Virus record (IMG/VR): IMGVR_UViG_2671180710_000027
Direction: 5' to 3' (one strand)
DNA length: 11,178 bases
From: a virus
Lineage: Duplodnaviria > Heunggongvirae > Uroviricota > Caudoviricetes
Each line of letters starts with the position of its first letter. Position 1 is the stretch's first letter. The position numbers and the translations under genes are program-made. Shown here in pieces: positions 1,017-11,178 of the stretch. Below the pieces are notes generated by a model. It saw only the letters and a program-made list of their open reading frames with translations. It had not been told where the DNA came from and ran no database searches.

Positions 1017-1098
1017 TGCTGGTGGCGGGGGTCGAACCCGCATACATGATCAGCCTGTACAGGCTGGCACCGACTCTACCCGTTGAGCGTACACCAGC
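1017..1098 (-). other. tRNA-like sequence (degenerate; probable attachment-site relic)
   Basis: Minus-strand read gives a perfect 7-bp acceptor stem (GCTGGTG / CACCAGC), a perfect T-arm (GCGGG-TTCGACC-CCCGC) and a D-arm resembling GCTCAGTTGGTAGAGC. The anticodon region is a 5-bp stem with a 6-nt loop inside the palindrome AGCCTGTACAGGCT, spacers are oversized, and no CCA is encoded. Confidence 0.5.
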
Positions 1099-1120: not shown

Positions 1121-1206
1121 CTGCTGGTGGTGGGGGTCGAACCCACATAAACATATGGCCCGTTAGGGTTTATGCCGCTTTACCGATTAAGAGTACACCA
1201 TACAGC
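1121..1206 (-). other. Second, more degenerate tRNA-like sequence
   Basis: Shares the 24-bp 3' terminus with the first copy (plus strand 1017-1040 versus 1122-1145, one mismatch) and a T-arm GTGGG-TTCGACC-CCCAC. The 5' acceptor strand is disrupted (GCTG-TAT-GGTG) and the middle is AT-rich and diverged. Confidence 0.4.
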
Positions 1207-1280: not shown

Positions 1281-1350
1281 ATTATTTCACCTGATTTCAC
1301 GTGATTTCGCTTAATTTCACAAAAATCACCGTCTTTCACCTTCTTTCACA
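1281..1350. repeat. Seven direct repeats of (A/T)TTTCAC phased at exactly 10 bp
   Basis: TTTCAC-like hexamers start at 1285, 1295, 1305, 1315, 1325, 1334 and 1344. The array lies about 80 bp inside the tRNA-like relics. Confidence 0.7.
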
Positions 1351-1480: not shown

Positions 1481-1888
1481 TTAGTCTTGCGTGATTTTAT
1501 TGGCGTGCTTCTTTCTAAGCCGCCGAATGATATCGTAAATATGGGTCTCGGATATCGCGTACTCTTTACGTAATGCCTGCAATTTTTCGCCGTTATCCCA
1601 CCTGTAGTAAATCTCGTATTCGCGCAATGCTGCGAAAAGTGATCTGCCTGTTGGAAGGTAAAGACTCCGCCCACCAGCATAGAAGGCGATTGCAGCAACA
1701 ACCCGCTTTGCGATTCTGAAAGCGTCTGCCTCCTCCATGCCATTACGGGTAAGTTCTGCCACTGAATGCGACACGATATCAGCAAGCGAATCACACCATG
1801 CATCACCTGGTTTATCTCCGCCGTCTATGTCATTCATGAATTTAAGCCGCTCGATGTCTTTTGGTACGTGATGGGTTTGCTCGTTCAT
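1481..1888 (-). CDS. Mor-family transcriptional activator
   Basis: 135-aa ORF. The C-terminal half (YLPTGRSLFAALREYEIYYRWDNGEKLQALRKEYAISETHIYDIIRRLRK) parallels phage Mu Mor (YIPRGQALDSLIRDLRIWNDFNGRNVSELTTRYGVTFNTVYKAIRRMRR, recalled). AAGAGG lies 7 nt upstream of the ATG at 1886-1888. Confidence 0.8.
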   Translation of the reverse strand: MNEQTHHVPKDIERLKFMNDIDGGDKPGDAWCDSLADIVSHSVAELTRNGMEEADAFRIAKRVVAAIAFYAGGRSLYLPTGRSLFAALREYEIYYRWDNGEKLQALRKEYAISETHIYDIIRRLRKKHANKITQD

Positions 1889-2540: not shown

Positions 2541-2865
2541 GCTTTCTTAAACAATGCCTAAAAGCCGATTTTATGGTGCTTTGAAACGGTTTTTAAAATG
2601 GCGCTCGTGGTGTACTCTCTGGCATTCAATGGCGCTCTGTGATGTGGCTGGTGGTATGTGGCCGCCATGCATAATGGGGCTGATTTTGTTCATGGCCCGG
2701 CAATGGGTGAGCATTTTTTACCATATTCAGGGTAACAATGGGCGAAAAAGTTCATTTCTGGCATGGCCTGAAATTCCATGCAGCCCGCGCCGCGTGTGCT
2801 CTTGCCGGGGAAAACGTCGCGGAATAATGACCGCACCCCACCTTATGGCGGTGCAGTCCCACGAA

Positions 2866-2934
2866 ATCCCGGTTATTTCCGTTTATTCCCGGATTAATCC
2901 CGCCTTTTCCCGCATTCTCCCGGCTGTTCCCGGA
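2866..2934. repeat. Seven direct repeats of TCCCG(G/C) phased at 10-11 bp
   Basis: TCCCG-type units at 2867, 2877 (degenerate TTCCG), 2887, 2898, 2908, 2918 and 2928, in a non-coding gap. Confidence 0.7.
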
Positions 2935-2956
2935 ATTAATCGCCGGGGTGTGGTGG

Positions 2957-3247
2957 TTATCTGGTGTGGTCGTAGTTCTGCCGTAGTCGTTCACCCTCAG
3001 CGCAATGACGCGGTTTTTTAACGCCGCTGGTAGCACAATGCGGGCAGGTCATGACGTGGCTGATATACGCATCACGGGCAGCCAGCCACGCCGCAGACGG
3101 GGCGCACATATCCGCCAGCGTCTGGCCGTTGCTGGTGGTGTTGTCTTCCGGCCATGTTTCGGACTGGTGCGCTTCCTGTAAATCCGGTGCAGGTAATGCC
3201 CGGATAAACTCACACAATGCATCCGGCAGGCTGAATAACTTATGCAT
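2957..3247 (-). CDS. Hypothetical small protein with Cys/His cluster (possible mosaic ORF)
   Basis: 96-aa ORF with ATG at 3245-3247 and no clear ribosome-binding site. Contains CPHC...HC. It carries an in-frame 34-bp segment (3101-3134) nearly identical to part of the helicase gene (4481-4514). Confidence 0.35.
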   Translation of the reverse strand: MHKLFSLPDALCEFIRALPAPDLQEAHQSETWPEDNTTSNGQTLADMCAPSAAWLAARDAYISHVMTCPHCATSGVKKPRHCAEGERLRQNYDHTR

Positions 3248-3670
3248 AAATCTGATGTTCTGAATCGCTGAAAACGTGCGTTTTATGGTGTTTTTTCGTG
3301 ATTTCTGCGTGTTCTGATGTGCTCATTTCGCTGTATCCCTTGTGTGGCGCGGGCTGCGCGTGTGTTTCGGTGTTCTTTTTTGCCGCCAGAAAACGGTAAT
3401 CAGGCATATAAACACGGCTGTAAGCCGCGCCGCGTCTGGCTTCGCGTGATTTTGTGCGCTAAAAAGTGCATTTTTGCCCTTAAAAAGCGTTATTCGTGAT
3501 TCACTGGTAAATGCTCCACATGCCGCGCCATTGCTGGGCTTTTCGCTATTCTGTGTGGTTTTGCTGTTTAACCCGTTTTGCACACTGAAATTGCCTTGCA
3601 TCCAGCGCCACGTAAGGGATTTCCGGGTTTTTATGGTGCGTTTTTTGCCGTGCGTAATATTGTGCAAGTT

Positions 3671-3913
3671 GGTGGGACTGGTGGGAACTGTGGGAACCGC
3701 CTAGAACCACGCGGCTTTCAGTGGTTCCCACCAGTTCCCACGGTGGCTTTTTGTGGGAACCGTGGCGGTTATTTTTTGTTCTCTGTGGTTCCCACCAGTT
3801 CCCGCAGAGTTCCCACTCAAAAACGAACAATAATCATACTGGTGATTTTATTATTTACTGATTTATATATGTTTTATTTTTACGGTTCCCACAGTTCCCA
3901 CCAGTCCCACCAC
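3671..3913. repeat. Iteron cluster with AT-rich core: candidate origin of replication (P4 ori/crr-like)
   Basis: About 11 copies of the octamer GTGGGAAC / GTTCCCAC in both orientations (3671-3698, 3724-3741, 3752-3761, 3789-3816, 3885-3910). They flank an AT-rich stretch at 3817-3884 and lie immediately downstream of the helicase gene. Confidence 0.65.
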
Positions 3914-3946: not shown

Positions 3947-5785
3947 TTATTCATCAATTGCGAATAACAATGCATTCTGGTCGATGGCGTAAACGCGGTG
4001 TTTTTCCCCGTTAACGGAAACGCGTTTTGTGTATCGGCGTTTCCCGTCCGTGTCGCGGTCAACAATCGCGCCAGCATCATCAAGACTGGCCGCTATGCGT
4101 TTCAGGTCGTAGCCGCTGGCCGCCTCACATAGTGCTTCCGGTAAAAACCAGTAAACCCGGTCGCCGTTGCTCCCCGGTCGCCACCATCCGGCGCGGTTGC
4201 TTACTGGTTCGCTGTATGTGTTGCCCCCTTCAAAGCGTGAGGCATGGCGGGCGATAAACCCGGCGACGGCCCGGAGTATTTTCACGTCCTCCGATTGCCC
4301 CCGGCCACGATAGTCCGACCACGCAGCAAACATCGCTTTCACCGCCTCCAGTGCTTCGCCCTGTTTCCACGGCAGAATCCCGGCAGTTATCGCCATTTCA
4401 CCGGCCAGTGCGCACAGTGTGAAACGCGCGGCGGCGCGCGCCTCCTGCCCGGTGCTTACGGGGAATTGTTCGCGCAGTATGGCGTACATATCCGCCAGCG
4501 TCTGGCCGTTGCTGTCGGTGCTGGTGGTGTCACTTTCATTGCGGGAAATCAGCCAGCGCACAAACTCCGGCCCGGCGTGGCCGTAATGGGTGGCCGCATT
4601 ACCGCGCAGCGTTTCGGCAAATTTCCGGCCTGCTCCACGGCGTTCTGTGTCGTTGTCGGGGTTGTGGGGTAGTGCCATTCCGTGGAGGCAGTCAAACGCC
4701 CCGTAAAGCCGCTGTGCCGGAATATCCAGTAACCGCATTTCCTGCCCGGCCTTGATGCGCTGACCACCGCTTTCCATGTGTTTACCCACGGTCATTTCCC
4801 CTGTGGAAATAATCATGGTGCGCCATGTGTTGACCGGGCGGGCCATGCCGGACACCTTGCCACGCTGGCGGCCTGTTCCGTTGCCAAGCTGATAAATCAG
4901 CCCGCCAATATCTCTGGCCGGGGCTTCGCCAATTTCATCCAGTATCAGCGCGGTATCGTTCCGCATGGTCGCCAGCCCTTCAAGCCCGGTGCTGGTGGCG
5001 TTCCAGTTGCGTTTAAAGTTGCGGGGTTCTCCCCATACGCTACAGGCCACCAGCGCCCCCACGCTTTTCCCGCTGGAACTGTCGCCCATGAAATGAAATC
5101 CGCCGCTGTCCACATCAAGCAGCCACAGCAACGGCCCGGCGAGTGATGCACACACTGCCAGCATGGCTACCGGGTTTCCCCGGCATAATGCGGCCACGTT
5201 GTCGCGCCAGCCCTCCGGCGTTCCTGCGGTGGCGTACTCCTGTGAGCCTGCTTCTGTTGACTGAAACACCACATCACCATCACCGATAACCCCGCCCGGC
5301 ATGACAAACAGGGTCGGGGAGTGCCACCCGGTGGCCGTAGCCGCGAGCGCCCGTCGTTTTGGTGCTGACTCCATGATGTATTCGGTCAGTGCCTGCCGTT
5401 GTTTGTAGGGAATGGTAACGCCCATGCGCAGCAGCTCCTGTCGGAGTTCTCCGCCGTCTCCGGCGAGCATTTCCATCGGTGCGGCCCATTCCCGCCACTG
5501 GCCTGACGGCGTGAGAAAACGGAGTAATCGCCCGTAGTTTTCGTCTTTGCTGTCGCTGGTCATGGCGATAACCTCCAGCGGGGAACAGATAAACGTGTCC
5601 GTGTTGGTTGAGTCGCGCACGCCGTGCCAGTAAAGGCCGGGTTTCAGTATCTGGCCGCCGTCCACCTGTACATGCTGCGAATAAGTGGCGTAGCCCGGAC
5701 GTGCCGGGCTGACTTTGGGGTGTTTCTTGCGTGGTGGTTTTCGCTTCCCGGATGTGACCGGGGTTTTAGTGGTTGTCCGGGTCAT
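3947..5785 (-). CDS. Replicative helicase, SF3/P-loop NTPase (P4 alpha C-terminal-like, DUF927-type)
   Basis: 612-aa ORF with Walker A GDSSSGKS and Walker B LILDEIG. Its ATG at 5783-5785 overlaps the primase 3' end by 20 bp. Confidence 0.85.
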   Translation of the reverse strand: MTRTTTKTPVTSGKRKPPRKKHPKVSPARPGYATYSQHVQVDGGQILKPGLYWHGVRDSTNTDTFICSPLEVIAMTSDSKDENYGRLLRFLTPSGQWREWAAPMEMLAGDGGELRQELLRMGVTIPYKQRQALTEYIMESAPKRRALAATATGWHSPTLFVMPGGVIGDGDVVFQSTEAGSQEYATAGTPEGWRDNVAALCRGNPVAMLAVCASLAGPLLWLLDVDSGGFHFMGDSSSGKSVGALVACSVWGEPRNFKRNWNATSTGLEGLATMRNDTALILDEIGEAPARDIGGLIYQLGNGTGRQRGKVSGMARPVNTWRTMIISTGEMTVGKHMESGGQRIKAGQEMRLLDIPAQRLYGAFDCLHGMALPHNPDNDTERRGAGRKFAETLRGNAATHYGHAGPEFVRWLISRNESDTTSTDSNGQTLADMYAILREQFPVSTGQEARAAARFTLCALAGEMAITAGILPWKQGEALEAVKAMFAAWSDYRGRGQSEDVKILRAVAGFIARHASRFEGGNTYSEPVSNRAGWWRPGSNGDRVYWFLPEALCEAASGYDLKRIAASLDDAGAIVDRDTDGKRRYTKRVSVNGEKHRVYAIDQNALLFAIDE

Positions 5786-6809
5786 GCTCCATTTCCCATA
5801 GCATCAAATCGTTAAAGTCGGAAAGGTCTGGTGATGCACCGGGCGGCCATTCCGGGAATGTGACGTAACATCCGGCCAGCAATGCGGCTTCGTTGGCTGC
5901 TCTGGAACCGGGGTTGCCTTTTGATGCCCGGTCATCATCCCCGGCGATAACGAGAGATATGCGCGAGCCGTATCGTTCACGCAGCGCCATAGCCACATGT
6001 TTAAGGTTTCCCGCATTCATGGCACACACCACGGCCATGACGTTCCAGTACTGGAGAAGGGCGGCCCCGGTGGCCCACCCCTCACACACGTAAACGTCAT
6101 GTTCCGGCGCTTCCGGGGCCATCAGGTCAAAGCTCCCCATAACATGGAAAGCCCCCTGCACCTGACCATCACGGAGAAACATTTTTCGACCGTCCGGGCT
6201 GATAATCTGCACGTTCACCACTTCGCCGCATACGTTGTACAGCGGGACAAGCAAATCATTACCCGACTGATACAGATTGCCGGGCTGTAGCCGTTTTTTC
6301 ATGAGATAGGGATGAGAAGGGGTTGCCACCTCCGCCCGGCCAAGCAACTCAAAGGCCCGGCAGGCGGTCAGTTTCTGGCGCTGGTGGCGTTGTTGCTGCT
6401 CCCGCTGGCGGAGTCTGCCCGCCTCCTGTTCTGCGGCCTGTACCCGCACCCGTTGCGCCTCCCGTTGTTCGCGGGTCATTACATCAGGTTTGCCCAGTGC
6501 GGGCAGGCACAGCCCCAGCCTGTCCGCCACAATACGGGCGGCATCAGTCTGACGCACATTCCACAAATAAGCCCCCAGCGCCACAAGGTCGCCGCCGCTG
6601 TCCCCGGTGGCGAAGTCGTGCCAGCATCCGTCCACCAGCGAGACGAAAAAACTGCCCGCGTGACGGTCTGCACGTGTGGGGTTACGGCACACCCATTCAG
6701 TGGCCTGCCGTTTACCTTCGGGCAGCCATTCAGGAACAAGGATTTCCGCATGTTGTGCCGCCACTGCGGCAACGCTGCGGATTGCGTTAATCGTGGCTAT
6801 GTCACGCAT
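5766..6809 (-). CDS. TOPRIM-domain DNA primase (P4 alpha N-terminal-like)
   Basis: TOPRIM motifs VYVCEGWATG and LVIAGDDD. Preferred start is the ATG at 6807-6809 (GGGAGGG upstream, MRDIATINAIR...), not the TTG at 6885-6887 used by the ORF track. Confidence 0.85.
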   Translation of the reverse strand: MRDIATINAIRSVAAVAAQHAEILVPEWLPEGKRQATEWVCRNPTRADRHAGSFFVSLVDGCWHDFATGDSGGDLVALGAYLWNVRQTDAARIVADRLGLCLPALGKPDVMTREQREAQRVRVQAAEQEAGRLRQREQQQRHQRQKLTACRAFELLGRAEVATPSHPYLMKKRLQPGNLYQSGNDLLVPLYNVCGEVVNVQIISPDGRKMFLRDGQVQGAFHVMGSFDLMAPEAPEHDVYVCEGWATGAALLQYWNVMAVVCAMNAGNLKHVAMALRERYGSRISLVIAGDDDRASKGNPGSRAANEAALLAGCYVTFPEWPPGASPDLSDFNDLMLWEMEHDPDNH

Positions 6810-7116
6810 GTTGCCCGCCCTCCCTGATTTCCCCGGTGCGGCAGCGCCAGTTATACGCCTCCACAACCTCACTGAATCCGGCCACAAGTTCAGCCGTAAC
6901 AGCGATGGAATCGCCCAGGCTGCGTAGTTCGCCCATGCTGGGGTCGAGATTGTCGCCCATGCCGGAAAGCAGGCGGCCTGTGCTAATCAGCCCTTCAAGC
7001 AGTTTGCGGGCGCAGTAATCCGCATCATCAAACAGGGCGCGGGCTTCCTGTGCGTCTGCGTTTTTGATGGCCGCAACCAGTAGTTCAGGTATCCGGGTGT
7101 TATACATATCACACAT
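6802..7116 (-). CDS. Hypothetical acidic protein (104 aa)
   Basis: ATG at 7114-7116 overlaps the upstream stop in an ATGTGTGA junction, and its own stop overlaps the primase start in ATGCGTGA. No motif recognised. Confidence 0.55.
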   Translation of the reverse strand: MCDMYNTRIPELLVAAIKNADAQEARALFDDADYCARKLLEGLISTGRLLSGMGDNLDPSMGELRSLGDSIAVTAELVAGFSEVVEAYNWRCRTGEIREGGQHA

Positions 7117-7405
7117 GGCTTACCTCCCCGGCCTGCTGGTCGTAACACTCCATCAGTTCGGCCATACAGCCAATGAGGGCAGGGGCTGTCTGTAGAAATC
7201 CGGCTAATTGGCAGATCTCGTCTCTGGAATAGGTGATGGGGTTTTCGCGTAACTGGCTTCCCTCCAGTGCCTTACCAACAAAGGCAATCCCCGCCAGTAA
7301 ATTCACTCTGTGCCAGTCGGCATCAACGCGCAGAATCCAGTGGCTTTCTTCGTCCGGCATACTGCTCATGGCGGCTTTCATTGACTCACGCAGACAATCA
7401 CGCAT
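7109..7405 (-). CDS. Hypothetical acidic protein (98 aa from ATG 7403-7405)
   Basis: The ORF-track start at 7435 is a TTG. The ATG at 7403-7405 sits in an ATGCGTGA overlap with the upstream stop and has GGGGG 6 nt upstream. Confidence 0.5.
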   Translation of the reverse strand: MRDCLRESMKAAMSSMPDEESHWILRVDADWHRVNLLAGIAFVGKALEGSQLRENPITYSRDEICQLAGFLQTAPALIGCMAELMECYDQQAGEVSHV

Positions 7406-7862
7406 GGCGCGCCCCCTGACGAATACGGGCGACAAAAATCATATGCGCGTGCGGTAGCTGCGCGCGTGCTTCGCGTTCTGTTGCCGCCGTGACGGTAAAG
7501 AGCGAGGTTTGTTTTTCCTGGCACTGCATAAAGCGCCAGACAAAGTAAGGGCGTGCGAATACAGCCATGTGAAAGGCTCCTATGTTTGAGGTAAGGAGTC
7601 TCGCTACTACGCTGCTAAACGGGGTGGCGAGACGTAACGGGGTTAGCAGACTGGCAACATAGAAACCAGCGAGCGCAAAGGCTCCCCCGTCACGCCCCGC
7701 CATAATGCGGGTATGGGTAGGTTTACGGACACAAAAAAACCGCATATCGGAATGTAAGCGGCTGTCCGCTATGTTATTCAGGCTGCTAAACCCGGTCACC
7801 ATGTGGGTGACTCCGGCATCATACAGCCCGAAAGAAGAGGCGATCAACATGTTTTTAAGCAT
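7398..7862 (-). CDS. Ash/Icd-like family protein (long form 154 aa; possible short form 7398-7568)
   Basis: C-terminal 56 aa (MAVFARPYFVWRFMQ...HMIFVARIRQGARHA) is paralogous to the Icd-like protein upstream. The long start at 7860-7862 overlaps the upstream stop (ATGCTTAA). An internal ATG at 7566-7568 has GGAG 8 nt upstream, so the true start is ambiguous. Confidence 0.5.
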   Translation of the reverse strand: MLKNMLIASSFGLYDAGVTHMVTGFSSLNNIADSRLHSDMRFFCVRKPTHTRIMAGRDGGAFALAGFYVASLLTPLRLATPFSSVVARLLTSNIGAFHMAVFARPYFVWRFMQCQEKQTSLFTVTAATEREARAQLPHAHMIFVARIRQGARHA

Positions 7863-8052: not shown

Positions 8053-8481
8053 TCTGGCAGCCTCCTTTTGCAAATTTAAGGAGTCACCGCCTGAGTTTCC
8101 ACGCTCATAAGGGGCGGTGACGCTGGCGGGGGTGGAAATACCGGCGCAAAAGGAAACCGGCCAGCCTTTCGGCTGCCCCACCAGCGCCACCATAGATACA
8201 GTGCGGGCCTTGCCGCTGTTCATGGTTGCGCGATGGCACGACACAAAAAAAGACGCTGGGCGCGTCTGTGTCGCCTTTTGCTCATTAAACGGGTTTCCAC
8301 GCCCGGCTGGTGGATTTACACCAGCCGGGGAAATATAACGCCCACCAGCGATGGCAGGCAAGCAATATTTGCGGTTGCCGCCCATTCTGTGGGGCGTGTG
8401 GTGGTTGTTTTGGGCGTGAGAACGCCCCGGCCCTGTTGCGGGCCTTTCTGGCATTTTCATGATTAAAATTCTCTGACGGGG

Positions 8482-9811: not shown

Positions 9812-9906
9812 GGTTTACGTTACCTTTGACGCTACCTTAAAAATAAACCGGGGCAGGCGGTAAGGTTTCCCGCTTTTCGCGCCGTCGCGCTATCCCCGGT
9901 ATGTTT

Positions 9907-11178
9907 TTATTTTGCAATCGCTTTTGTGATGGGGGTTACGTTGTATTCATCCCCCTGTTCCAGAGCCACCAGCAGGTCGGCCCATAACTCCAGAGCGTGG
10001 CGGCGTTCATTGAAATACTGATGGCGGTTATAGATACCCTCAACGCCTTTAATTCGGTGGTTCAGGCAGCGTTCCGCCACTACAGGGTCTACCCCAAGCG
10101 CGGCAAGGTGAGTTCTGGCTGTGCGTCGGAAATCGTGAACGGTAAAACCCGGCACACCAGGCATTTCCCGGCGAACCTTAGCCAGCGCAACGGGCAGGGT
10201 GCTTTCCTGTATGTGTGGAATCATGCGCTGTTGCATTTTGCGGGCCGGAAGCACCCAGCGGCTACCGCCTGAAATGCTGTGTAATTCGCGCAACCATGCC
10301 ACCGCTGGTGGCGGTAGTGGGATATCAATGGCATCCCCGTTTTTAGCCCGTTCGGCAGGGAGTCGCCATACAGCACTATCTAAATCAAATTCATCCCACT
10401 GTGCGGCGCACAACTCCATTTTTCGGCAGCAAAGGCAAAGTATCAGTTTCATGGTGAGTTCATTCTCACGGCTGAATCCTTTAGCTGTGCGCATGGCCTG
10501 AAAAAAATGAATGAGTTCATCACGGGTTAGCCATCGGTCGCGGCTTTTTTCAGCCCCACCAGCATCTGATAACTCAAAAGCAGCGGCGGGGTTTGTTTCC
10601 AGTGCGTGGCGTTTGATGGCGTAGTCGAATATCCGTTTAGTCCATCGCAAAACATCATTGGCGACTGTTGGCGCTCCGCGGTCAATAATGCGCTGTAGCA
10701 TTGCGTCAATATGGCGCGGTTTAACGTCTTCGACTTTCAGGCTGCCAATCTGAGGGTTGATATCTTTGTCTATGCGGCGGCGGAGAATATCGGGATGTTT
10801 CCAGCGGGGTAGTATTTGCCGTTCGTAGTATTCGGCTGCCAGTTCTGACACGCGAAGGGCGTTTTTTTCTTCCTCAATCCGTGCCAGTGCCGCCGCTTTT
10901 CGGGCCTGCTTTTCTCCGGCCACGTCATGGCCCAGCGCAACACGGGCGGCCAGTTCTTTAACGGTGGCGCGGGCTTTACTTAGTGACAGGTCGGAATATG
11001 AGCCGATGTGCATAGCACGTTGTTTCCCGGCCATCCGGTAACGATAGCGCCAGAATGGGGCGTTATATTTTTCAGGGAAGCACAAATACAGGCCGTTACC
11101 ATCGGCGCGGGCATCAAAGCGTTCCCCGGCCTTTATCCACGCCTTTATCTGAATATCCGTTAACTTCGCCTTTGTCAT
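9907..11178 (-). CDS. int: Tyrosine site-specific integrase, P4 family
   Basis: 423-aa ORF whose N-terminus (MTKAKLTDIQIKAWIKAGERF...GNGLYLCF) resembles the P4-type arm-binding domain. The C-terminus carries the catalytic motifs HDFRRT and LNH...GIYNRHQY. The start codon is at the window edge. Confidence 0.9.
   Translation of the reverse strand: MTKAKLTDIQIKAWIKAGERFDARADGNGLYLCFPEKYNAPFWRYRYRMAGKQRAMHIGSYSDLSLSKARATVKELAARVALGHDVAGEKQARKAAALARIEEEKNALRVSELAAEYYERQILPRWKHPDILRRRIDKDINPQIGSLKVEDVKPRHIDAMLQRIIDRGAPTVANDVLRWTKRIFDYAIKRHALETNPAAAFELSDAGGAEKSRDRWLTRDELIHFFQAMRTAKGFSRENELTMKLILCLCCRKMELCAAQWDEFDLDSAVWRLPAERAKNGDAIDIPLPPPAVAWLRELHSISGGSRWVLPARKMQQRMIPHIQESTLPVALAKVRREMPGVPGFTVHDFRRTARTHLAALGVDPVVAERCLNHRIKGVEGIYNRHQYFNERRHALELWADLLVALEQGDEYNVTPITKAIAK

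Follow-up and report, generated by a model that had tools for sequence, protein, structure and literature searches.

A helically phased CGGGA repeat array in an Escherichia coli satellite-like island: a candidate mimic of the packaging site of Mu-family phages

Analysis of a DNA stretch of 11,178 nucleotides (IMG/VR record IMGVR_UViG_2671180710_000027; hereafter the window), which corresponds to an Escherichia coli chromosomal island flanked by yicC and dinD whose genes all lie on the minus strand, revealed an array of eight short repeats phased at one helical turn that is close in sequence, phasing and polarity to arrays that Mu-like transposable phages carry at the left end alone. Based on this likeness, we propose, with a probability of about 0.5, that the array is an amplified mimic of the packaging (pac) site of a Mu-family helper, carried by a satellite island of the kind represented by phage-inducible chromosomal islands (PICIs) and P4, and that it may have originated as a copy, since multiplied, of the phased CGGGA repeats lying just inside the Mu-family left terminus. 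In this proposal the phage arrays would be the pac determinant, the terminase would be the protein that binds them, and the island would be mobilized by the helper.

The phased array and its counterparts in Mu-like phages

On the coding (minus) strand of the island the array reads CCGGGA acag CCGGGA gaat GCGGGA aaag GCGGGA ttaat CCGGGA ataa ACGGAA ataa CCGGGA tttc GTGGGA. In plus-strand notation it comprises six exact TCCCG(G/C) units, one TCCCAC and one degenerate TTCCGT (Table 1), all eight in a single orientation, separated by AT-rich spacers and set at steps of 10, 10, 10, 11, 10, 10 and 10 bp. The array is polar, with the degenerate GTGGGA innermost (2857-2862; TCCCAC on the plus strand) and an abrupt outer edge. 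A sequence-only reading of this DNA had placed seven TCCCG(G/C) units here and described them as a helically phased array of protein-binding sites; the description is sound and the seven positions stand, but the unit at 2877 is not an exact copy, and an eighth in-register unit at 2857 had been overlooked.

The array is real and lies far beyond chance. The longest chain of exact TCCCG words at 10- or 11-bp steps in the window has five members, a length that no other 5-mer in the window attains, and in 5,000 runs of a first-order Markov model of the window the longest TCCCG chain had two members and never three; Tandem Repeats Finder also detects the repeat. The array is likewise non-coding, as had been supposed from the sequence: PGAP annotates no gene across it, and one relative is shorter by exactly one 10-bp unit and indels of 1 bp are found close by among relatives, changes that would break both overlapping open reading frames (ORFs) and that rule out a coding repeat. 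An Rfam scan returned no match to the array, on which ground a known RNA was rejected as its identity, a BLAST search found no similarity to phages or plasmids, and prediction of sigma-70-like promoters placed none adjoining it.

Table 1. Positions of the array, its units and other features in the window (array units in plus-strand notation)
Feature	Position	Strand	Remark
Eight-unit phased array	2857..2933	-	proposed mimic of a Mu-type (left-end) pac site
Array unit TCCCAC	2857		
Array unit TCCCGG	2867		
Array unit TTCCGT	2877		degenerate
Array unit TCCCGG	2887		
Array unit TCCCGC	2898		
Array unit TCCCGC	2908		
Array unit TCCCGG	2918		
Array unit TCCCGG	2928		
Paralogous second array, ~7 units	1284..1349	-	TTTCAC on plus strand, GTGAAA on minus strand
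Mor/C-family late transcription activator	1481..1888	-	long-form module only
Terminal box AAAGCCGnTTTTATGG..AAATGGCGC	2560..2625	-	near integrase-distal end of short form; duplicate at 955-1015
Strongly conserved non-coding stretch	2626..2856	-	between array and terminal box; nearly invariant among five relatives; no Rfam match; no annotated gene
Orphan 96-aa protein	2957..3247	-	CxxC...HC motif; last gene of replication block
Probable replication origin	3669..3912	.	~12 GTTCCCAC/GTGGGAAC iterons, both orientations, around an AT-rich stretch
DUF927 primase/helicase-type replication protein	3947..5785	-	P4 alpha-like; C-terminal HTH_56-like region
Toprim-domain primase partner	5766..6809	-	
Tyrosine integrase	9907..11178	-	opposite island end, beside yicC

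In phage Mu, nt 31-66 from the left end read CCGGGA ggac ATTGGA ttat TCGGGA tctg ATGGGA, and D108 and two E. coli Mu-family prophages carry the array at the same left-end position. With the arrays of B3 and BcepMu located at 43-78 and 54-80 from the left end, respectively, the xCGGGA array of these cultured Mu-like phages begins 31-54 bp from the left terminus, in 10-bp phase and in one orientation. We take the pac site of Mu to lie at nt 32-54 or 35-58 of its left end; it was reportedly mapped by Groenen and van de Putte in 1985 and by Harel and colleagues in 1990, and the repeats themselves would, on our proposal, be its determinant. Like this region of Mu, the island has same-orientation xCGGGA units with AT-rich spacers of the kind ttat, tttg or ttag at a phase of about 10 bp (exactly 10 bp in Mu), an inner degenerate unit of the form (A/G)TGGGA, an abrupt termination at the outer side, and an internal degenerate unit, ATTGGA in Mu and ACGGAA in the island. 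The two differ in that the four Mu units are found ~30 bp from the transposon terminus beside a MuA-binding site, whereas the island has eight units in an integrase-mobilized element. No TG... terminus and no L1-like transposase-binding site lies within tens of bp of the array in any island compared, which, given the integrase-type island, makes the array at most a mimic and not a Mu end; a fossil Mu end was rejected for this reason.

No CGGGA array stands at the right end of Mu, B3 or BcepMu, and the repeat is therefore not a transposase end-site; nor is it a local operator, since the neighboring gene varies from phage to phage, being c in Mu but mor in both B3 and BcepMu, with F/portal in another class. 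A search of IMG/VR revealed at least 120 loci with three TCCCGS units at exact 10-bp spacing and a complete list of 65 loci with four or more exact units, which were sorted by clustering of neighboring ORFs together with Pfam scans. The largest class consisted of Mu-like transposable phages, recognized by an S24-type c repressor, Ner (HTH_35), MuA (DDE_2 and Mu HTH) or a Mu-type portal/F; Mu genes accompanied the array in 39 of the at least 120 three-unit loci listed and in 26 of the 65 four-unit loci, always on the same side. At one locus (L019) a Mu gp27-family gene, a 558-aa ORF without assignment in the large-terminase position, a Mu-type portal and F all lie beside the array. The Mu-like arrays from IMG/VR have 3-5 units in one orientation, AT-rich spacers even in GC-rich genomes, and no unit after the last (outer) one; in 8 of the 39 Mu-like loci listed the innermost unit is TCCCAC/GTGGGA, as in the island (Mu itself has TGGGA). 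The likeness extends to the spacers in islands with four units, as seen from the Klebsiella island L188, CCGGGAttatCCGGGAaagtGCGGGAtttaGCGGGA, set against a Mu-family left end, ATTGGAttatTCGGGAtttgGCGGGAttag.

Within tens of bp past the viral arrays stands a terminus-like TGTC..ACA element, which matches the annotated attL1 of RcapMu and at which homology among the phages ends. Many of the Mu-like contigs (L012-L179) themselves end 80-170 bp past the array, that is, tens to ~140 bp beyond this terminus. Published work puts the host DNA that Mu packages along with its left end at ~50-150 bp, and the contig ends are consistent with such a stretch; they might serve to map terminase cut distances from metagenomes.

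Among 5,426 complete E. coli genomes, 31 carry the array, which is also conserved in E. albertii. A Mu-family prophage resides in 4 of the 31 island-bearing E. coli genomes, among them ETEC1732, UMNF18 and Z0117EC0133, compared with 88 of the 5,426 overall (hypergeometric P = 0.0015, or 0.012 when two clonal enterotoxigenic E. coli (ETEC) strains are counted once). The island combines a satellite-type gene content with a cis site resembling the left-end array of E. coli Mu-family phages and prophages. A second connection to Mu-like phages is provided by the Mor/C-family protein of the window, which, compared with 50,697 phage records, gave 19 matches, all of them to Mu-like phages or to records with a Mu-like insert. 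The best match (48% identity) and closest phage homologue is the C/Mor protein of an Sp18-type Mu-like phage inserted in Shiga toxin (Stx) phages, with Mu C at 31%. Three related islands likewise carry Mor/C-family genes, as cargo placed a short way downstream of the origin (L187 8016-8480, L189 7598-8170 and L193 8410-8889).

The window also harbors a paralogous second array that keeps the register of the TCCCGS array down to its one 11-bp step, and both cassettes carry the terminal box. Its GTGAAA units resemble GTGAAA/GGTGAAATCA elements that occur at the left end only of the Sp18-type phage, the transposase sites of which, TTTGATACC, are found at both ends. This match is weaker than that of the CGGGA array, with an estimated P of roughly ~0.05 for the shared 9-mers. 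We tentatively suggest that an enterobacterial satellite family may parasitize Mu-type phages through an amplified left-end signal, offered in swappable cassettes of the CGGGA (Mu/D108) type and the GTGAAA (Sp18) type, though we hold this broader generalization with less than even confidence.

Proposed packaging role and competing roles

If the array serves packaging, mobilization would begin when a Mu-family helper enters lytic growth. The island would be excised by Int and AlpA and replicated from its own origin by the toprim and DUF927 proteins, and the packaging machinery of the helper, presumably a Mu gp27-type small terminase, would bind the eight phased units cooperatively, all on one face. 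The terminase would then cut ~100 bp outside the first CCGGGA unit, and the head would be filled with island DNA in the direction from CCGGGA to GTGGGA, passing attP to enter int and continuing round the element, for which island multimers would be needed because Mu packages by the headful. Binding to the array could also divert terminase from the helper, a titration with possible helper inhibition.

Several points weigh against this reading. RcapMu, KS10 and Sp18-type Mu-like phages carry no CGGGA array, so that the signal is not universal among Mu-like phages, and some related islands (L187, L190 and L191) lack it as well. The viral arrays were found by motif search, which builds motif identity into the comparison and leaves context, polarity and spacers as its independent components. 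The prophage co-occurrence draws on three or four strains, some of them clonal, and binding, excision, replication and transfer of the island are predictions. The headful packaging of an element of 8-10 kb, moreover, requires multimers. Finally, the Mu array coincides with a stretch that has a part in transposition, and TCCCG-type words act as origin iterons in some related elements; each of these points speaks for a competing role and is taken up with it below.

The array may mimic a left-end function of Mu other than pac, namely transpososome assembly, by way, for example, of the L1-L2 spacer or another left-end factor. The island array would in that case bind or titrate this factor, for example interfering with the transposition-replication of the helper, and would have no part in packaging. 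The Mu array does lie within the L1-L2 spacer, which is bent by HU in the transpososome, so the phage array might itself serve transposition; the phased GC cores and AT-rich spacers point to DNA with a preferred direction of bending, and all links to Mu-like phages that support the pac reading hold equally here. We nevertheless consider this role unlikely, since bendability needs no conserved 5-mer across phages with different transposase end-sites (the CGAAA type in Mu, the GCGCGATA type in B3 and BcepMu, and the TGTC..ACA type in metagenomic phages), and since a one-ended transposition element would be of no obvious use to a satellite. Left-end-only placement, in turn, fits the known polarity of Mu packaging.

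Somewhat less likely again is that the array is a second cluster of replication iterons, bound by the DUF927/toprim proteins or a related initiator and acting in replication in cis or in copy-number control. The model for such an arrangement is P4, the crr of which has an iteron identical to that of the P4 origin, and which shares with the island an alpha-like primase/helicase, an octamer-iteron origin beside its gene and a distant second repeat cluster. The GTTCCCAC origin iterons of the island and the array have a TCCC core in common, one origin unit is GTTCCCGC, and the first unit of the array, as GTCCCAC, also occurs among the variants in the origin field. TCCCG-type words serve as origin iterons in several DUF927 or primase elements (GTTCCCGG in L139 and L140, CGGGAAC in L192, TATCCCGS in L071 and TGTCCCG in the Prim-Pol/PriCT_2 class of L072), and the array and this DUF927 gene, which is found in 32 E. 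coli genomes, occur in the same genomes. The two motifs are nonetheless distinct, CCCGS (as TCCCGS) occupying 6 of the 8 array units and CCCAC (as GTTCCCAC) 11 of the 12 origin iterons, and, in contrast to every origin compared, the array is uniformly oriented and contains no AT-rich unwinding region.

The decisive comparison comes from relatives of the DUF927 protein, which were collected and then scanned for phased arrays. Islands whose DUF927 proteins are 59-81% identical to that of the window have exchanged their origin iterons, to TGTCCCC in two Salmonella islands (L186 and L189) and the Klebsiella island L188, and to GGTTAC in a Providencia island (L193). A distal CGGGA array nevertheless persists in all four, its units facing one way, on the same strand and at the same integrase-distal end (CCGGGAttatCCGGGAtaacGCGGGAtttaGCGGG in L186, CCGGGAtatgGCGGGttttaGCGGGA in L189, GCGGGAtaatCCGAAattaaACGGAAtttaGCGGGA in L193, and the L188 array given above). 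Conversely, L138 (enterobacterial; 86% identity) and L190 (from a metagenome; 82%) have the GTTCCCAC iterons of the window and no distal array, and the TGTCCCC islands L187 (Salmonella) and L191 (Klebsiella) have none either. The origin iteron thus changes while the array stays CGGGA, indicating that the array does not follow initiator specificity and, in contrast to P4 crr, neither repeats the origin iteron nor changes together with it. The toprim/DUF927 family as a whole has switched repeatedly between origin iterons (GTTCCCAC, TGTCCCC, GTTCCCGG/CGGGAAC, GGTTAC and TATCCCGS) and has preserved the origin layout in every case.

The sequence-only reading had favored an operator array, possibly for one of the island's own activators, and the corresponding reading here is an operator or recombination-accessory array for a small island protein (AlpA/Xis-type, Mor, PerC, Ash-like or a small hypothetical protein). 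Proteins of the Cox, Xis and Apl types typically have same-orientation repeats phased at 10-11 bp as their sites, and like the P2 Cox boxes and the X1-X1.5-X2 sites of lambda, the array consists of direct repeats at one helical turn suited to cooperative, filament-like binding; in the Salmonella island L186, it lies ~75 bp from the presumed integrase arm repeats. In the form of the island present in the window (the long form), the array is indeed upstream of an ssb remnant, perC and mor on the same strand, as had been pointed out. These three genes, however, belong to an extra 1.5-kb module that is found in only ~7 of 31 genomes, and approximately 24 of the 31 array-bearing islands lack it, and with it both PerC and Mor. 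Such short-form islands end roughly 300-460 bp beyond the array, with no gene between the array and the attachment (att) site and no promoter-like site adjoining, which leaves no downstream ssb, perC or mor for the array to control. The same comparison identifies 2538-2956 as the conserved end of the short form and not, as had been thought, a segment replacing the 5' half of ssb.

Nor does the array follow AlpA or the integrase. The island of strain cq9 has a different integrase, a different integration site (tRNA-Ile) and an AlpA-like protein unrelated in sequence (23% identity over 39 aa, E = 0.48), and its array is still 96.7% identical; conversely, L187 and L190 have the same integrase/AlpA type and no array. 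Arrays of the Cox, Xis and Apl kind track their cognate excisionase and adjoin att cores or promoters, whereas the island array tracks neither AlpA nor Int, and integrase arm sites and sites for AlpA or another recombination directionality factor were rejected on this evidence. No island gene confined to array-bearing islands was found among the relatives compared. The array is therefore independent of the Int, AlpA, Mor/PerC and initiator specificity of the island, an operator for the proteins of the island itself is improbable, and with no island-encoded protein tracking the array, a helper phage or the host is the more likely source of the protein that binds it.

A structural element or host-factor site (intrinsic curvature or a nucleoid protein) with no sequence-specific phage partner would account for the regular alternation of GC-rich cores and AT-rich spacers at one helical turn, but is the least probable of these roles, because the CGGGA word, the layout of 4-8 units and the polarity are kept in Escherichia, Salmonella, Klebsiella and Providencia islands with otherwise unrelated flanks, and likewise in Mu-like phages of distant hosts. 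A lambda-type or P2/P4-type cos site was rejected: searched with consensus sequences, the window contains no P2/P4 cos, no cosN-like nick site lies within ~50-100 bp of the repeats, the segment 2538-2956 holds a single lambda cosN match at the limit of three mismatches (2656-2667, ~200 bp off), and cosN-like matches across the window total the number expected by chance. Separately, CGGCGGCGACCT at 6586-6597 on the minus strand, inside the toprim gene, matches the cohesive-end sequence of lambda cosN at 11 of 12 positions, which may be chance.

Relation to known satellites and implications

To our knowledge, the known E. coli satellites exploit lambdoid or P2-type helpers. If the packaging reading is correct, Mu-type phages, which transpose and package by the headful, would constitute a new class of helper for E. 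coli satellites, and copying and multiplying the packaging signal of the helper itself would be a new form of known molecular piracy. The pac determinant of Mu, long undefined, would be a helically phased CGGGA repeat conserved from Mu to B3 of Pseudomonas, BcepMu of Burkholderia and many uncultured Mu-like phages, providing a concrete and testable sequence model for pac in this group. A pac site in the chromosome could furthermore drive lateral transduction of neighboring genes (dinD, ligB and the spoT side) during growth of Mu-family phages in pathogenic Shiga toxin-producing E. coli (STEC) and ETEC. Even if the pac reading is wrong, the array is not an operator for the regulators of the island and is independent of its replication specificity.

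Among the closest counterparts are the cos-type PICIs of E. coli represented by EcCICFT073, which, like the island, have int, alpA, primase/replication genes and an origin, lack capsid genes, and carry a cis site expected to be recognized by the terminase of a helper (PMC6739421, PMC6092414). In EcCICFT073, Rpp redirects the TerS of the helper to a PICI-specific cosB, and the cos sites of E. coli PICIs are unlike those of the helper in the terminase-binding part (PMC6739421). The island differs from these: no lambda-type cosN stands beside its array, the candidate helper is a transposing Mu-type phage with headful packaging and not a lambdoid cos phage, and the site resembles the signal of the helper instead of diverging from it. 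No Rpp-like protein is detectable by sequence in the island. A PICI with a Mu-like helper has been documented in Pasteurella (PMC6092414), where PmCI172/PmCI86 show the lifestyle proposed here, that of a PICI-type satellite mobilized by a Mu-family phage; PmCI172 differs from the island in encoding a capsid protein homologue and making small capsids.

Architecture and distribution of the island

The island has the layout of a PICI/P4-like satellite: at 8-10 kb it falls within the ~8-15 kb typical of such elements, and it combines int, an alpA-type regulator, primase/replication genes and an origin with the absence of virion genes. Along the minus strand the order is integrase, a 317-aa protein, AlpA, two Ash/Icd-like genes with C4 antisense RNAs, two small genes, toprim, DUF927, the origin-like iteron field, the orphan 96-aa gene and the array, followed by ~300 bp of conserved non-coding DNA, the ssb remnant, a frameshifted perC, mor, the TTTCAC array, two tRNA-like stretches and dinD. 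The position of the origin directly downstream of the DUF927 gene is common to all relatives. Homology among islands at different chromosomal sites starts at the terminal box, similar boxes are present in the Klebsiella and Salmonella relatives, and the long form equals the short form plus the 1.5-kb module bounded by the duplicated box of ~60 bp.

In C311 (L185), the one genome with the DUF927 gene and no array, a deletion of ~487 bp flanked by short GCTGGTGGT repeats has removed the array. Its island persists, indicating that the array is dispensable for keeping the island in the chromosome. The deletion corresponds to ~2650-3140 of the window and removes, besides the array, most of the 96-aa gene.

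The 96-aa protein has no sequence match in Pfam, PHROG or PDB. Its homologues occur in the Pseudomonas-type islands L139 and L140, both lacking a distal array, an Erwinia locus (L009) that likewise lacks an array shares only the C-terminal motif, and in the array-bearing L188 no gene is called at the matching position; the gene is thus not specifically linked to the array, and an Rpp-like or other known function was rejected for it. The conserved C-terminal motif WLxARDAYxxHVMxCxxC...HC, possibly a zinc ribbon, is common to the Pseudomonas-type islands (L139 ~7060-7540) and the Erwinia locus (~6001-6132). The N-terminus is also found in L138, where the C-terminus differs.

Between dinD and mor, the tRNA-like stretch at 1017-1098 (minus strand) scores 35 bits with the Rfam tRNA model and is annotated as tRNA-Tyr by PGAP, and ARAGORN finds no tRNA there; a second stretch at ~1125-1200 (minus strand) is annotated as 'tRNA-OTHER' in relatives. 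The extra module may carry both as decayed or non-canonical tRNAs. Toward the integrase, two tandem immunity-like modules (7620-7824 and 8110-8338, minus strand) each consist of a C4 antisense RNA, an isrK-like RNA and an Ash/Icd-like ORF, and an int-alpA RNA is located at 9835-9900. Direct repeats ATGTACAC..ATGTACAC lie by the island end in the window (~890-930), in L005 (~4210-4245) and in L186 (8607-8630), and are probably arm-type sites for the integrase family of the yicC site.

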